Assembly: GCA_903825415.1 (NCBI GenBank)
Contig: CAIKAN010000051.1
Location: 1-51,816 of the forward strand
Length of the DNA stretch: 51,816 nucleotides
Source: an uncultured bacterium
GTDB lineage: Bacteria; Patescibacteriota; Minisyncoccia; Phycocordibacterales; PALSA-1337
Direction of reading: 5' to 3'
Shown: positions 1,419 to 31,755 of the stretch, piece after piece
How positions within the stretch are numbered: the first letter of the stretch is position 1
Layout of the letters: each line of letters begins with the position of its first letter
Notes under the pieces: model-generated
Databases searched by the model: none
What the model saw: the letters and a program-made list of their open reading frames with translations, nothing else
Told to the model about the DNA's origin: nothing
Position numbers and translations under genes: made by a program

Positions 1419-1489
1419 GCGGGTATGGTTTAGTGGTAGAATGCGACCTTCCCAAGGTTGAGACGCGGGTTCGATTCCCGCTACCCGCA
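1419..1489 (+). tRNA. tRNA-Gly (anticodon CCC)
   Basis: Manual cloverleaf: GCGGGTA TG GTTT AGTGGTA GAAT G CGACC TTCCCAA GGTTG AGAC GCGGG TTCGATT CCCGC TACCCGC A. 71 nt, no encoded CCA. Confidence 0.9.
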
Positions 1490-1621
1490 CAAAATGAGCG
1501 CAGAGAATTTTGTGCGGGTAAGCAAGCCGCCTGCGCGGCTTGCGTGCGGGAATCGAAAAGTTTGAGCATGTCGCGCGCAGCGAAGCGAGCACGACGCGAA
1601 AACTGTACCGAAGCCGTAGGC

Positions 1622-17387: not shown

Positions 17388-19010
17388 TTAATTATTCGAT
17401 CGCTGATATAGACGAGCGCTTGCGTCATTGTCCTTCTTTGGTTTATGAAGAGGTAAAGTCACATAGAATATCGATCCTCTATTCTCCGTCGAATCGAACC
17501 AGAGCTTTCCTCCGGCTTGCTCGACTATCGATCTTGCTATATAGAGGCCGAGACCGGTGCCTTCTGTATCTTTTCCGATCACATTGTCGGCTCGAAATAG
17601 CTTGGTGAATATCTTGTTCTGTTGGTCTTTCGGTATACCATAGCCGGTATCTCTGATCTTCATCAATATATCGCTTCCGTCTATCATGACTGTCGATATG
17701 TAGATCTTTCCGCCATCGGAGGTGTATTTCACGGCATTCGATACTATATTCTGTATGACCATGCGGAGCAGTTTTGGGTCAGTCTTTATGAGAGGTATCT
17801 TCTTGCTGAATGATGAAGTGAGGATGATCCGCTTTTCTGTTATAAGGAGCTTGTGTTCGTCTAGGACGCTTTGGGTCAATTTGACTATATTCGTCGGCTT
17901 GCTTTCGATGATGAGGGTGCCGAGCTCGATGCGCGATACATCGAGCAAGGTATTCACGAGCTCGACCATGCGCTGATTGCCGGCGTAGATCTCTTCTAGG
18001 TATTTCTTTTGATCGGGCGTGACCTTGCCAGCGTCTCCTGCGAGCAGCATCTCGCTGTACCAGTTGACGGTCGAGAGCGGGGTACGGAGCTGGTGCGAAG
18101 CGAGCGAGACGAATTCTGTCTTGGCTTTGTCGATCTCTTTTTCTTTTGTGATATCTCTGAACACTTCGACTGCTCCGACGGTCTTACCGTCTAGGATGAC
18201 TGGAGCGACTATACTGCTAGTAGGGAAGCGGCTCGTATCCTTGCGTATATAATAGAATGGATTGGTGAGGTTTGCGACGAATTTCTCTCCAGAGAGGACT
18301 TGTGTGAGTATCCTTTCCTTGAATGAGACCTTTGTTCCATGGATGTCTTCTCTGGGTACGACTTGGACCATGCTCTTGCCGATGATCTCCTCAGCTTTCC
18401 AACCGAGCATCTCTTCGAATGATTTATTTATATAGTTGATCCGGCCTTCTTTGTCTACTACTACCAGCCCGTCGCCTATGCTGGCCAAGATCGCCTCGCT
18501 CTTGGATCGGATCTGTTCGAGGTCTTTCGTACGCTCCGAGACTTTCTTTTCGAGAGTTTCATAGAGCGATTTGAGCTTCTCTGCAGTTACGACCAATTTA
18601 CGTCTGGCGCTCTCTTTCTCTTTGGCGGTCACCGCCAATTGTTTAGCTGTCACTTCGAGCTTACGCCTAGTGCTCTCTTTTTCTTTAGCTGTCACCGCCA
18701 ATGTTTTGGCAGTCACAACAAGCTTACGCCTAGTACTTTCTTTCTCTTTGGCGGTCACCGCCAATTGTTTAGCTGTCACTTCGAGCTTACGCCTAGTGCT
18801 CTCCTTTTCTTTAGCTGTCACCGCTAGCTGTTTGGCTGTTACTACCAATTTGCGCCTAGTGCTCTCCTTCTCCTTGGCTGTTACCGCCAGTTGTTTGGCT
18901 GTCACAACGAGCTTGCGCCTGATGCCTTCCTTCTCATTCGCCAAAGCCTCGAGCTTACGAGCGATGCCGTCGGCAAGTGTGTCTGTGCGTTTGTCTGGTT
19001 TCATCTGCAT
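17388..19010 (-). CDS. cytoplasmic PAS-domain sensor histidine kinase with an N-terminal 21-aa tandem repeat coiled coil
   Basis: H-box FVSLASHQLRTPLS and G-box GTGLGLYIARSIVEQAGG. A PAS-like region (ILASIGDGLVVVDKEGRINYINKSFEEMLGW). No TM segment. Confidence 0.9.
   Translation of the reverse strand: MQMKPDKRTDTLADGIARKLEALANEKEGIRRKLVVTAKQLAVTAKEKESTRRKLVVTAKQLAVTAKEKESTRRKLEVTAKQLAVTAKEKESTRRKLVVTAKTLAVTAKEKESTRRKLEVTAKQLAVTAKEKESARRKLVVTAEKLKSLYETLEKKVSERTKDLEQIRSKSEAILASIGDGLVVVDKEGRINYINKSFEEMLGWKAEEIIGKSMVQVVPREDIHGTKVSFKERILTQVLSGEKFVANLTNPFYYIRKDTSRFPTSSIVAPVILDGKTVGAVEVFRDITKEKEIDKAKTEFVSLASHQLRTPLSTVNWYSEMLLAGDAGKVTPDQKKYLEEIYAGNQRMVELVNTLLDVSRIELGTLIIESKPTNIVKLTQSVLDEHKLLITEKRIILTSSFSKKIPLIKTDPKLLRMVIQNIVSNAVKYTSDGGKIYISTVMIDGSDILMKIRDTGYGIPKDQQNKIFTKLFRADNVIGKDTEGTGLGLYIARSIVEQAGGKLWFDSTENRGSIFYVTLPLHKPKKDNDASARLYQRSNN
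18567..18920 (-). repeat. 63-bp tandem repeat (about 5.6 units) inside the kinase gene
   Basis: Encodes RRKLVVTAKQLAVTAKEKEST x5 with point variants, plus a partial sixth unit. Confidence 0.9.
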
Positions 19011-28400: not shown

Positions 28401-29408
28401 ATGAACGACGATATAAAGATTTTCCAGGAGTGGTCACAGCCGGAGAAGAAGAAAGTGCAGATAGCGCACGCATACCACAAAGCGAAGATCGAGGAACTGA
28501 AGAATCAGATTGACCGAGCGGTCCTTCGCGGCAAGAGAAAGCCTACTCGCTTTTTCATGGAGAATGAATTTGTGGAGCATGGCTATATGGGAAAGTTACC
28601 GAAACTCTGCACGCTCGTCTATTGCGCAATTCTAAAGCATGGCAATACCGAGACACAGGTCGCCTGGCCAAGTTTGACTACCATTCAAGATCTGACCGGC
28701 GAGAAAAACAGAAACTATGTTGCCAATGCGGTCCGGCTTCTTGTTGAGTGCAGTATTCTTGGTGTGGTCCAAGCAAAAACTGGCTTTAAGACCTTGAACC
28801 TCTACTACTTCAAGTCGGTCGATTTTTGGAAAAGCATCGCTCATGTTAGCAAGCGTCTGAAGCTCAAGGATTCAGTTGCGCAGTATCCAGATGTGCGTCT
28901 CCGTAGTATCCGAAAGCGCAGAAACCGTAGTATTAACGTAGATACTCTAACTAACCAAAATAATAAATCTCCTAATTCTTTAACTAGCATCGGAGATTTC
29001 TTAAAAGGAAGAATGCAGAAATGGCAGATACCGCCTGCAGTTGCTATTCCAGAGGCTTCTGGGCATAGTGTCGTTCGGACAGAAGAAGAAAGACAATACC
29101 CTTGGAGACAGAAACAAGAGGGTCCCTATGAAGGAGTAGATTCTCCTGATAGATCAGGAGAATTACAGGATAATCGCAGTATCGTAGAAGATACTACGGT
29201 CATTCCCGTAAATACGGGTAATTTACGGGAACCAAACTCTGTTGAGACCCCCGAAGAACCACCACTCGGTAGTATCTCACTCGATACTGCGGAACCACCA
29301 TTTAAAAACGGTGGAAAAGCGGTCGAGAGCGCATTTGAGACCCACACAGAATTAAGCCTGGACGACATAACCCAAGAAGACCTTGGACCAGGAAAAGCAA
29401 CATTATGA
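28401..29408 (+). CDS. winged-helix (HTH) protein, replication-initiator or DnaD-like in mobile elements
   Basis: LCTLVYCAILKHGN...AWPSLTTIQDLTGEKNRNYVANAVRLLVECSIL. 4-nt ATGA overlap with the recombinase gene. Confidence 0.5.
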   Translation: MNDDIKIFQEWSQPEKKKVQIAHAYHKAKIEELKNQIDRAVLRGKRKPTRFFMENEFVEHGYMGKLPKLCTLVYCAILKHGNTETQVAWPSLTTIQDLTGEKNRNYVANAVRLLVECSILGVVQAKTGFKTLNLYYFKSVDFWKSIAHVSKRLKLKDSVAQYPDVRLRSIRKRRNRSINVDTLTNQNNKSPNSLTSIGDFLKGRMQKWQIPPAVAIPEASGHSVVRTEEERQYPWRQKQEGPYEGVDSPDRSGELQDNRSIVEDTTVIPVNTGNLREPNSVETPEEPPLGSISLDTAEPPFKNGGKAVESAFETHTELSLDDITQEDLGPGKATL

Positions 29409-31057
29409 ACCCAAAGATAAACGCACCAATTAAATACTTTCTCTATGCCCGAAAATCGAGCGAGGCTGAAGATCGCCAGGCAGCATCAATCGATGCCCAA
29501 AAAGACGAGCTTTTGAAGATTGCCAAGGATCAAGGCTTAAACGTCATCGGTATCCTTGAGGAATCACAATCGGCAAAGAAACCAGGGAGAAAGATTTTCA
29601 ACTCCATGCTCGAGAGAATCTATAAGGGTGAAGCTAACGGCATCCTGTGTTGGAAATTGGACCGACTCGCGCGCAATCCTGTAGATGGCGGACAGATAAG
29701 CTGGATGTTGCAGCAGAGTGCGATATCTCAAATTGTCACTTTCGGCAGAACATACTATCCAACAGACAACGTCCTCATGATGCAAGTGGAACTTGGCATG
29801 GCCAATCAATTTATTCGTGACCTCTCTGTGAACGTAAAGCGAGGTCTGCAAAAGAAAGTGAGAGATGGCTGGATGCCGAGCGGCGCACCTGTCGGCTATC
29901 TCAACACGCCAAATAAGCAGAAGGGATACAAGACCCTGGAGAAGGATCCTGAGAGATTTCCATTAGTTCGAAGGCTCTTTGACCTTGTACTTACCGGCAA
30001 CTATTCGATTGCGCAAATCTGGAACATCTCCCGAAAGAAATTGAACCTGACAACAGTGCCGCGTAAAAACATTGGCGGTAAGCATCTCTCACGATCAGGA
30101 ATCTATGCACTCCTAAGCAACCCGTTTTATTACGGCTGGTTTGAGTTTCCACTGCATAGCGGTGAATGGCACAAAGGCAGTCATGAGCAGATGATAACCA
30201 AAGAGGAGTTTGATCGGTGCCAGAAGATTATGGGCCGTACCAGTCAGCCTCGGCCGAGAGAAGAAAGACTCTTTGCTTTTACCGGCATGATGAAGTGTGC
30301 AACGTGCGGTTGTAGTATTACCGCCCAAGCGAAAGTAAAACGCCAGAAGAATGGCAATGTTCACCATTACACCTATTATAATTGCACCAAAAAGAGATAC
30401 GATGCCGAATGTGATGAGAAGCATGTCGAGGTAAAACTTCTACATTTCCAAATCGGAGCGGTACTCCAGGATATACGAATTTCAGAGGAGTATCGTGATT
30501 GGGCCATTCGTCATGTTCATGAGGTCCGCAAGAATGAGGCTGAAAGTAATTCAATGGCACTCAAGACAAAACATAAGGAGTGCGAAGAAGTAACACAGCA
30601 GCTGCAGTCATTGACCTTGAATTTTACTGGACCAACTAATAAGGATCGAACCATCATCAGCGATGAGGAGTATCAAGCTCTCAAGTCGGATTTACTCAAA
30701 AGAAAGGGTGTCCTAGAGGACGATTTAAAGTTTAAGAATAAGGCTGTAGAACAATGGGCTGAACTTTCAGAGCAAACCTTTGACTTTGCCTGCTATGCCC
30801 ACCTTTGGTACGAAAATGGGGACGAAAAGATCAAAAGAGCGATACTCGCATGCCTTGGCTCGAACCTCACCATAAAGGGCAAAAAACTCCAGATTTCCTA
30901 CACTTCTTTCTTTTTGAGCCTCATAAAAGCACGAGATGCTATTGAGCAGGAAATTGAGCACGCTCGAACCTATAAATATCCAAGCCTGACAAAACAAAAC
31001 AGGCATGATGTGCCTGTTTTGTCACTAGGGCTCCGGAGACAGGATTCGAACCTGTGA
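29405..31057 (+). CDS. large serine recombinase
   Basis: Catalytic YARKSSEAEDRQ and LDRLARN (resolvase domain), a recombinase domain, a zinc ribbon (CATCGC...YYNCTKK) and a coiled coil. The last 27 nt overlap the tRNA-Asn 3' end. Confidence 0.9.
   Translation: MNPKINAPIKYFLYARKSSEAEDRQAASIDAQKDELLKIAKDQGLNVIGILEESQSAKKPGRKIFNSMLERIYKGEANGILCWKLDRLARNPVDGGQISWMLQQSAISQIVTFGRTYYPTDNVLMMQVELGMANQFIRDLSVNVKRGLQKKVRDGWMPSGAPVGYLNTPNKQKGYKTLEKDPERFPLVRRLFDLVLTGNYSIAQIWNISRKKLNLTTVPRKNIGGKHLSRSGIYALLSNPFYYGWFEFPLHSGEWHKGSHEQMITKEEFDRCQKIMGRTSQPRPREERLFAFTGMMKCATCGCSITAQAKVKRQKNGNVHHYTYYNCTKKRYDAECDEKHVEVKLLHFQIGAVLQDIRISEEYRDWAIRHVHEVRKNEAESNSMALKTKHKECEEVTQQLQSLTLNFTGPTNKDRTIISDEEYQALKSDLLKRKGVLEDDLKFKNKAVEQWAELSEQTFDFACYAHLWYENGDEKIKRAILACLGSNLTIKGKKLQISYTSFFLSLIKARDAIEQEIEHARTYKYPSLTKQNRHDVPVLSLGLRRQDSNL
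30990..31022 (-). terminator. terminator hairpin downstream of tRNA-Asn, lying inside the recombinase ORF tail
   Basis: CAAAACAGGCA-tgatg-TGCCTGTTTTG. On the minus strand it is followed by TTTTGT. Confidence 0.65.
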
Positions 31058-31068
31058 CCAATCGCTTA

Positions 31069-31637
31069 CATTGCTCCTATTGTTACTAATAGGGATGGAC
31101 TATATCATTCCCGTGTTCTTGATTGTTCAAGAGTTTAGGGACGAGGGGCTTCGTTCCTCGACTATGCTCGGAACTACTCCTGAAAAGGATAGTCTCTACA
31201 CCTTCCTAGTCCGTTTGAAATGACTAGGCTCGGCTCGGGATTGCCCCAAAGCTATTAACTTCTGGGTTTCCCCGAATTCACCTCGTTTTCGACCAAGATT
31301 TCTCTTGGAAGCTGCAAGATGCCTGCTTCAACTTCACAATGACAGTTGGCGCATAAAAGGATGCATTTATCTAATTCTGCTCTTACTTTTGTCCAAGAAC
31401 GCGTATAGCCTTTGTCACCGATACCAAAGCTCTTTTCGTCTTTGTTGATATGGTGAAGTTCTAATGCATTCTGACATCTGTTGTAATTGCAAATCTGACA
31501 TTTGCCACCTTTATATTCTATCGACAAAGCTTTTACCTTGCGTCGCCTTTTGGCAACAGCCTTGATAAGTGCTTCACGTCGATCGGCATATTTTCGATTG
31601 TCTGACATAATTACATTATATCAAACAGTCTAAGTTT
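31069..31637 (-). mobile_element. group I intron (IC3-like core) with an embedded homing-endonuclease ORF
   Basis: The exon ends in U and the intron ends in ...GGAGCAAUG. GGGGCAAUCCCGAGCCGAGCC lies at 31247-31227 and GAAGGUGUAGAGACUA at 31205-31190, with a GACUAU/AUAGUC P7-like pairing. Confidence 0.75.
31255..31608 (-). CDS. HNH homing endonuclease (intron-encoded)
   Basis: CQICNYNRC...LELHHINKD...LLCANCHCEVE (CxxC...HH...CxxCH). Confidence 0.8.
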   Translation of the reverse strand: MSDNRKYADRREALIKAVAKRRRKVKALSIEYKGGKCQICNYNRCQNALELHHINKDEKSFGIGDKGYTRSWTKVRAELDKCILLCANCHCEVEAGILQLPREILVENEVNSGKPRS

Positions 31638-31755
31638 ACAGGCGACTGCTCTACCGCTGAGCTACTCCGGAATATGTTTCTTTTAAAGAACGGGCATCTG
31701 GAAATGTACCATATCTAGCTGTGCAAATCAAAATGCGATACATTATAGGGATAGC

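Follow-up and report, generated by a model that had tools for sequence, protein, structure and literature searches.

A group I intron with an HNH endonuclease gene in the tRNA-Asn(GUU) gene of Patescibacteria, with the reading frame probably inserted in the P1 loop

The split tRNA-Asn(GUU) gene

The DNA analyzed here, called the window below, is a stretch of 51,816 nt (contig CAIKAN010000051.1) from an uncultured bacterium of the Patescibacteria, or candidate phyla radiation (CPR). On its minus strand, the anticodon loop of a tRNA-Asn(GUU) gene is interrupted by 569 nt that contain a group I ribozyme core and an open reading frame (ORF) for an HNH endonuclease. The locus as a whole is very probably best explained as a mobile group I intron of a Paceibacteria-like CPR genome, with the HNH gene lying in the P1 loop of the ribozyme. 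Its main parts are as follows.

31638..31671, minus strand: tRNA-Asn exon 1, TCCGGAGTAGCTCAGCGGTAGAGCAGTCGCCTGT, 34 nt, with the acceptor 5' strand, the D arm, the anticodon stem 5' strand and the loop bases CUGU
31069..31637, minus strand: group I intron of 569 nt that separates U35 from U36 and ends in G31069, the omega G; placed by ARAGORN (i(36,569)), RF00028 and covariation
31255..31608, minus strand: HNH endonuclease ORF, 354 nt, 117 aa, with its ATG at intron nt 30, its conserved part at about residues 1-100 and its stop in L5
31031..31068, minus strand: tRNA-Asn exon 2, TAAGCGATTGGTCACAGGTTCGAATCCTGTCTCCGGAG, 38 nt, with UAA, the anticodon stem 3' strand, the variable loop, the T arm, the acceptor 3' strand and G73

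A first-pass annotation had read two tRNA halves, 569 nt apart on the minus strand, as one 72-nt tRNA-Asn(GUU), and the coordinates, ARAGORN and an intact homologous gene all agree with this. The intron-aware ARAGORN run that it had called for returned tRNA-Asn(gtt) with a 569-nt intron at positions 35/36, while the default mode missed the split gene. The joined 72-mer is also recognized as tRNA-Asn by ARAGORN, having a 7-nt anticodon loop, the GUU anticodon and the G73 discriminator; exon 2 ends at G73, and CCA is not encoded. The ligated exons are identical in 72/72 positions to an uninterrupted tRNA-Asn gene of another genome (locus L140), which is far beyond chance and fixes the junction at CUGU|UAA, so that the predicted ligated sequence is CUGU|UAAGCGAU. 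The proposed exon end in U and intron end in G also hold, since the U at -1 forms a U.G wobble with GCAG in P1 and G31069 stands directly before the 3' splice site.

In a scan of one genome per GTDB species, 145 loci with relatives of the ORF were found, and 80 of them, mostly from metagenome-assembled genomes (MAGs) of Patescibacteria/CPR, were kept. The junctions CTGT...G|TAA flank the ORF, with a 5-nt stem and its complement outside them, in about 73 of the 80 loci. Across the intron, pairing is perfect in both the acceptor stem (7 bp) and the anticodon stem (5 bp) in 67 loci, including the window, although the sequences differ (acceptor stems TCCGGAG/CTCCGGA, TCGGGAG/CTCCCGA and TCCCCTG/CGGGGGA; anticodon stems GTCGC/GCGAT, ATCGA/TCGAT and GCTCC/GGAGT). 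The leftover loci reach the end of a contig or have a single mismatch at the top of the anticodon stem. Because the exon halves stay complementary while diverging, they evolve as one functional tRNA, and the intron must therefore be removed. All complete loci recovered by the HNH query are tRNA-Asn. The labels "Thr" and "His" that ARAGORN gave to about 20 related loci were rejected as junction artefacts, since all of these loci are CTGT...G|TAA and tRNA-Asn.

No second tRNA-Asn lies within the 51.8-kb window, where the sole other tRNA is tRNA-Gly(CCC) at 1419-1490 (plus strand). Past the tRNA 3' end by 10 nt, a terminator-like hairpin, AAAACAGGCA-CATCA-TGCCUGUUUU followed by GUUUUG, can be seen by eye at 30991-31020 (minus strand); the scanning tool used did not call it.

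The ribozyme, its guide sequence and the HNH gene

The Rfam group I model RF00028, named in the first-pass annotation as a check, matches 31339-31076 (minus strand) over the full length of the model (52.1 bits, E = 1.9e-10; gathering score 50), and 12 of 19 sampled relatives score 52-89 bits. For the covariation analysis, the last 300 nt of 66 introns were aligned, and the structure tested comprised P2, P3, P4, P5, P6, P6a, P7, P8 and P9 together with two additional hairpins that lie after the P7 5' strand and before the P3 3' strand. Across its 57 pairs in 11 helices, 92% of the cells pair, compared with 35-51% when the partners are slid by 1-3 columns. Changes on both sides occur in 39 of the 57 pairs, and none of 500 shuffles reached the observed values. 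The elements of the ribozyme, in their 5' to 3' order, are as follows.

31636..31641, minus strand: P1 5' strand CUGU|AA, the last 4 exon and first 2 intron nt, pairing with UUGCAG at 31317-31312 through a U-1.G wobble
31309..31317, minus strand: P1 3' strand (internal guide sequence UUGCAG) and J1/2 (CUU), with GCAGCT in 66/66 introns
31293..31308, minus strand: P2 hairpin CCAAGA-GAAA-UCUUGG, 98.5% of cells paired, 5/6 pairs changed on both sides
31235..31285, minus strand: P3 5' strand (31285-31279), J3/4, P4 (31275-31270 with 31240-31235) and P5/L5 (31266-31245)
31200..31234, minus strand: P6 and P6a, with 7/7 P6a pairs changed on both sides
31190..31194, minus strand: P7 5' strand GACUA, within GUAGAGACUA, invariant in 66 sequences and pairing with 31102-31098
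31153..31189, minus strand: the extra hairpins P7.1 (31189-31178) and P7.2 (31174-31153) between P7 and P3', 99.6% and 87% paired, with 9/9 pairs covarying
31142..31148, minus strand: P3 3' strand CCCCUCG, from the covariation alignment
31109..31141, minus strand: P8, its outer 4 pairs 95% paired and 3 of them covarying
31098..31102, minus strand: P7 3' strand UAGUC, inside the invariant GAUAUAGUCC, from the alignment of 66 introns
31076..31093, minus strand: P9 hairpin with a GUAA-containing loop, 85% paired, 4/6 pairs covarying

The helices of the P3/P7 pseudoknot core are supported by covariation, with P7 itself invariant. P4 is paired in 99.5% of cells, with 5/6 pairs covarying, and P3 in 93%, one U-C mismatch being present in the P3 of the window. 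The core strings that had been quoted from the window are both present and are common to introns of the Azoarcus/Anabaena type, but AUAGUC occurs twice in the intron; the true P7 3' strand is the copy in GAUAUAGUCC at 31102-31098, while the other lies inside P7.2 near 31164. A helix suggested by the Rfam alignment, GAAGUUG/CAGCUUC, was rejected, as most relatives have a C-A mismatch in it and no compensating changes; CAGCUUC is invariant because it holds the guide sequence. With this architecture, we infer that the intron is a group I ribozyme capable of catalytic self-splicing.

The assignment to subgroup IC3, made earlier from the resemblance of the core strings to those of Azoarcus and Anabaena, stands only in part. 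The intron has the GNRA-capped P2 (GAAA) and P9 (GUAA), and its J3/4, J6/7 and J8/7 strings match the Azoarcus and Synechococcus seeds. By definition, subgroup IC3 has a compact core without P7.1/P7.2 between P7 and P3'. The window intron does not have such a compact core, since two covarying hairpins lie at that position, where the Azoarcus and Leu.3Ug seeds are empty. With these extra hairpins, a plain IC3 label is not justified. Pairwise alignment to seven published seed introns did not discriminate between the subgroups (scores 124-179, the top ones being seeds with extra hairpins).

The guide sequence places the ORF within the ribozyme. GCAGCT is present in 66/66 introns directly 5' of P2, about 320 nt from the 5' splice site, and its GCAG pairs with the exon bases CUGU, giving a 6-bp helix, CUGU|AA / UUGCAG, in the window. 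The next pair, between intron position +1 and the base 5' of GCAG, covaries in 58 of the 66 introns (G-C 45, A-U 12, G.U 1, mismatch 8). Curated seeds of the classes Tyr.4Ug and Asp.4Ug have the corresponding P1 helices CUGUAA/UUGCAG and CUGUC/GGCAG (Williams, bioRxiv 10.1101/2020.01.27.920355). An ORF-less intron at the related locus L069 starts with CUGU|C-GGUUA-GGCAG-CUUU, a compact P1 hairpin with the same guide sequence. As the guide GCAG adjoins P2 and lies about 320 nt downstream of the splice site, the ORF is an insertion in the P1 loop.

The 117-aa HNH ORF noticed earlier near the start of the intron was found at 31608-31255, with its ATG at intron nt 30. PHROG HNH families match the window protein at E = 2e-26, and PF01844, the Pfam HNH family, is detected at E <= 0.01 in 17 of 20 homologues with 68-85% identity (best 3.8e-08). 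In the CxxC...HH...CANCH signature, C40, H52, H53, C86, N88, C89 and H90 are invariant among 20 sequences and C37 is nearly so; all eight residues are present in the window protein. The first 30 residues, which are highly basic, are invariant as well. The median pairwise ratio of nonsynonymous to synonymous substitution (dN/dS) is 0.09 over codons 1-95, and an ORF of at least 100 aa occurs in 65 of the 66 introns, from which strong purifying selection follows: the protein is maintained rather than decaying. A sequence search of PDB yielded nothing better than an insignificant hit (E = 0.15), which was to the HNH-like end of a group II intron maturase.

The end of the protein overlaps the ribozyme. 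From about residue 99 on, the ORF is a translation of the guide sequence, P2, P3, P4 and P5, and the invariant Gln-Leu of the protein is translated GCAGCU. Past about residue 100, the proteins of the relatives terminate at varying points; in the window the tail VENEVNSGKPRS translates J2/3, P3, P4 and P5, with the stop codon in L5.

Two overlapping features surround the start of the ORF.

31599..31628, minus strand: 13-bp hairpin CUGUUUGAUAUAAU-GUA-AUUAUGUCAGACA that buries the ORF start codon, with a minimum free energy of -11.2 kcal/mol (z = -6.3)
31615..31623, minus strand: extended -10-like motif TGATATAAT, 6 nt upstream of the ATG, a candidate internal promoter

The 3' arm of the hairpin is formed by the start codon and the next two codons, and the 5' arm by the promoter-like stretch. 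The AUG is fully paired by the hairpin in 47 of 62 introns; in the gap-free subset, 75% of the cells pair as against 33-51% when slid, and the sole freely variable pair covaries (G-C 15, A-U 9, G.U 3). A perfect TATAAT occurs in 50 of the 66 introns, mostly with TGn before it and 6-8 nt from the ATG, the spacer being variable; of 58 introns with a match to the hexamer, 47 have it at this distance. There is no visible Shine-Dalgarno sequence in the 6-nt spacer before the ATG. The last three bases of the hexamer are conserved though their partners vary or are unpaired, which pairing does not explain, and an internal extended -10 promoter is therefore proposed.

Distribution, mechanism and alternative explanations

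More than 2,700 relatives of the intron ORF were found, and the few that are named by taxon belong to Candidatus Paceibacterota, Pacebacteria or Taylorbacteria. An HNH protein identical to that of the window is present in the JGI samples 3300022555 and 3300009502. At least 67 Patescibacteria genomes have the same HNH-bearing tRNA-Asn intron. When the anticodon arm was searched for in its uninterrupted form, at least 120 loci came up, mostly in MAGs with a Patescibacteria or Paceibacterota label, and at least 112 of these loci have an intact tRNA-Asn(GTT). Intron-plus and intron-minus alleles of the same site thus coexist in related genomes (at least 67 vs. at least 112 loci), and the 80 intron-less loci listed have no assembly prefix in common with the intron-bearing set. 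A homing intron would leave such a patchy pattern, which suggests mobility. A pattern scan for ORF-less introns (GCCTGTN{4,30}GCAGCTTYC) returned chance matches in unrelated taxa, with no split tRNA-Asn among the matches listed. Some intron-bearing contigs (L027, L048, L052 and L080) are labelled Simkania, Gammaproteobacteria, Peribacteraceae or Eubacteriales, and many others are labelled "Saccharibacteria", with tRNA, intron and HNH gene of the Paceibacterota-locus type; these odd labels are probably due to mis-binning or loose naming of MAGs.

Two loci look like intermediate stages. At L135 (2538-2977, Kerfeldbacteria MAG), a free-standing HNH homologue (56% identical, tblastn E = 2e-27) is encoded about 75 nt upstream of an intact, intron-less tRNA-Asn. 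At L069 (1495-2106), a free-standing HNH gene (1495-1812) lies directly upstream of a tRNA-Asn (1844-2106) with an ORF-less 190-nt group I intron, whose ribozyme has the variant core GGGAUAACGGUG without P7.1/P7.2, in common with L056, L076 and L077. These loci allow a tentative scenario, possible rather than probable, in which the HNH gene, as a self-contained cassette equipped with an extended -10 promoter, a leaderless start and a silencing hairpin, passed from a free-standing position (L135) to one beside an ORF-less intron (L069) and then into the P1 loop. If that is true, L135 and L069 are living intermediates of a proposed pathway to mobile group I introns, in CPR bacteria whose sole tRNA-Asn is ribozyme-dependent.

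The observed exon and intron boundaries, ribozyme helices, protein conservation and presence/absence pattern across the clade fit the following mechanism. The split gene would be transcribed as a precursor of about 640 nt, in which the intron would fold into a group I ribozyme with P1-P9 and the two hairpins between P7 and P3'. The U.G wobble would arise as the guide UUGCAG (31317-31312) pairs with CUGU|AA at the 5' splice site, and splicing initiated by guanosine would join CUGU|UAA to give a normal 72-nt tRNA-Asn. In this precursor, the AUG would be hidden in the 13-bp hairpin, keeping ribosomes off, whereas the internal extended -10 promoter TGATATAAT would start a leaderless mRNA at or near the AUG, without the 5' arm of the hairpin. 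This route of expression, promoter and leaderless mRNA alike, is only inferred. The non-conserved tail of the ORF would simply read through the guide sequence and P2-P5 into L5. Most likely, the HNH protein is a homing endonuclease that would cut intron-less tRNA-Asn alleles and so spread the intron into them. The HNH-bearing tRNA-Asn intron is real, conserved and, as a mobile group I intron, almost certainly functional.

Several points weigh against this interpretation. The RF00028 score of the window is just 2 bits over the threshold, and 7 of the 19 sampled relatives fall under it. The window protein alone scores 13.7 bits against Pfam HNH (PF01844), where the cut-off is 21.4 (E = 0.07), and its codon 91 (31336-31338) specifies Cys (CANCHCEV), directly after a metal-binding His, where at least 90% of the relatives have Arg (CANCHREV). 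P1 must form over about 320 nt, and P10 is weak, with 2-3 bp. The promoter scanner, which needs a -35 box, does not call TGATATAAT, and the free-standing homologue at L135 keeps the hairpin with a hexamer degraded to TATACC. The search for a second tRNA-Asn covers the 51.8-kb window, and the splicing and expression of the locus are predictions from its sequence. The marginal Rfam score and the U-C mismatch in P3 could also mark a disrupted, non-functional tRNA pseudogene with a decaying intron, an explanation that we consider extremely improbable, because the exon halves are perfectly complementary though diverged in 67 genomes, the ligated product equals the intact gene at L140, the ribozyme helices covary and the ORF evolves at a dN/dS of 0.09. 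In addition, some tRNAs of circularized CPR genomes hold group I introns, and the full tRNA set of these genomes is complete only when the intron-split tRNAs are counted (Lui et al., PMC8172020). Another possibility concerns P1 itself, which the first-pass annotation had drawn as a weak local helix (U.G plus AAAC/GUUU); a P1 of this kind within the first 20 nt would place the ORF between P1 and P2. In 45 of the 66 introns, a local helix with 3 or more bp can be drawn beside a G, with a mean length of 3.0 against 2.64 (sd 0.10) in a permuted control, and in the seed Pam37.Asn.4Ug a local UGUA/UGUA was aligned as P1 by Williams. However, the helix as drawn is specific to the window, its GUUUG belongs to the U-rich 5' arm of the start-codon hairpin, so that the two structures compete, and in 21 of the 66 introns a local helix is absent or has 2 bp at most. 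The GCAG adjoining P2 is invariant and has a covarying fifth pair, the ORF-less intron of L069 uses GGCAG, and Pam37 also has GCAGCC directly before its GNRA hairpin. The guide sequence is thus better supported, the drawn P1 is probably wrong, and a real local P1 seems to us quite improbable.

For the ORF, the choice is closer. It stands near an even chance that TATAAT is no promoter at all and is conserved as the RNA partner of the start-codon region, with the ORF translated from the precursor or the excised intron. The TAU of the hexamer pairs with AUG in every sequence, and both the retention of the hairpin at L135 despite TATACC and the lack of a -35 box called by the scanner agree with that. 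On the other hand, AAT and a T (not C) opposite the G of AUG are conserved while their partners vary or are unpaired in 12-16 of 33 sequences, most introns have TGn in front of the hexamer, the 6-8 nt to the ATG correspond to the usual distance from a -10 element to the transcription start, and the 6-nt spacer has no Shine-Dalgarno sequence, all of which favors the promoter. It is also conceivable that the HNH protein has ceased to be a homing endonuclease, or does more than homing, and is kept for maturase-like help in splicing or another service to the host. Purifying selection of this strength on an ORF intact in 65/66 introns is more than a simple invade-then-decay homing cycle predicts, and the basic, invariant N-terminal 30 residues point the same way; but the catalytic residues of the HNH protein do not vary, the distribution of the intron among close relatives is patchy, and free-standing HNH copies adjoin an intron-less tRNA-Asn at L135 and an ORF-less intron at L069, where a maturase role would be unnecessary or impossible. 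We therefore regard a role of this sort as unlikely.

Asparagine decoding in many ultra-small CPR bacteria thus apparently hangs on a self-splicing ribozyme in what is probably their sole tRNA-Asn gene. Default tRNA finders miss such split genes, so that genomes can look incomplete. The known range of bacterial group I intron sites is unchanged by this locus, the Asn site having been catalogued in 2020. The family has dozens of divergent, covarying members, ORF-less and ORF-bearing, with the endonuclease inside the intron or free-standing beside the tRNA, and it is a good natural data set for the joining of endonucleases with group I introns and for the overlap of an ORF with a ribozyme core.

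The neighboring genes are ordinary bacterial ones, for a ribosome hibernation factor, a PEBP-family protein, a YggU-like protein and a serine recombinase. The last of these is a large serine recombinase (29405-31057, plus strand; Resolvase, Recombinase and zinc-ribbon domains) convergent with tRNA-Asn, and its ORF runs 27 nt into the tRNA 3' exon. An integrated element may occupy the adjacent region at 22.8-29.4 kb, where the GC content is lower (0.38-0.42) and small ORFs are numerous; a search of the window for an att-type repeat of the tRNA 3' end found none. Elsewhere, a 540-aa ORF resembling sensor histidine kinases (17388-19010, minus strand) contains, toward its N terminus, 21-aa repeats, KEKESTRRKLVVTAKQLAVTA, which are encoded at 18583-19004 by a 63-nt unit repeated 5 times in tandem.

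Relation to known systems

Intron-split tRNA types in bacteria were raised from four classical ones to 21, including Asn.4Ug, by Williams, who also remarked that introns over about 400 bp may contain protein genes (bioRxiv 10.1101/2020.01.27.920355). The window intron belongs to the Asn.4Ug class, having the isotype Asn, insertion after loop nucleotide 4, U at -1 and G at omega. The earlier view that its host and site are unusual does not hold, since Asn.4Ug is already a seed in Williams 2020 and the HNH-bearing form is widespread in Patescibacteria, as counted above. The closest known relative, Pam37.Asn.4Ug, shares the tRNA, the insertion CUGU|UAA, the U at -1 and the omega G, as well as the presence of additional hairpins in the P7-P3' interval and of GCAGC immediately before a GNRA-capped hairpin; unlike the window intron, with its 354-nt HNH ORF in the P1 loop, it is about 275 nt long and ORF-less. 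Several of the newer tRNA introns of Williams, including the Asn seed, carry extra hairpins at the P7-P3' position.

The Tyr.4Ug and Asp.4Ug seeds (Mba143 and Wba81) have a curated P1 as in the window and L069, followed by CUU and a GNRA-capped P2, and their hosts share the CUGU 5' half of the loop, although they are other tRNAs and the introns have no ORF. The variant core of Mba143, GAUAACGGUG, was seen here only in L056, L069, L076 and L077. The Tyr, Asp and Asn seed introns all follow CUGU and have the same GCAG guide, then CUU (C alone in the Tyr seed); a single lineage of introns may move among tRNAs with G34-U35 anticodons.

The classical IC3 introns of Azoarcus tRNA-Ile(CAU) and cyanobacterial tRNA-Leu(UAA) also lie in the anticodon loop, with a short P1 and GNRA-capped P2 and P9, and have near-identical J3/4-P4, P4'-P6 and J6/7-P7 strings (AAUUCGGGGAAA, CAAUCCCGAGCC, GGUGUAGAGACUA, AUAGUCC). 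In the seed alignment, they have neither P7.1/P7.2 nor an ORF, and their insertion positions differ. An anticodon-loop intron with its own homing endonuclease is found in Synechocystis, where the tRNA-fMet group I intron encodes I-Ssp6803I; this enzyme is of the PD-(D/E)XK class, not HNH, and both the host tRNA and the phylum differ from those of the window.

No prior description was found of the placement of the ORF in the P1 loop, of the overlap between ORF and core, of the hairpin at the start codon with its TATAAT or of the free-standing relatives; the preprint of Nakagawa et al. 2025, on group I introns of patescibacterial tRNAs, may cover them. Parallels to these features exist in phage homing systems. 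The HNH enzyme I-HmuI is encoded inside a phage group I intron. The I-TevI gene in the td intron of T4 has its start signals in a hairpin of the long transcripts and an intron-internal promoter. Free-standing endonucleases reportedly act with ORF-less introns in the "collaborative homing" attributed to Bonocora and Shub and to Zeng et al. The system described here is alike in having an HNH gene in a group I intron, a proposed hidden start with an internal promoter, and free-standing genes beside the target at L069 and L135. It is unlike them in belonging to a cellular CPR genome with a tRNA as the host gene, and its activities are predicted ones.

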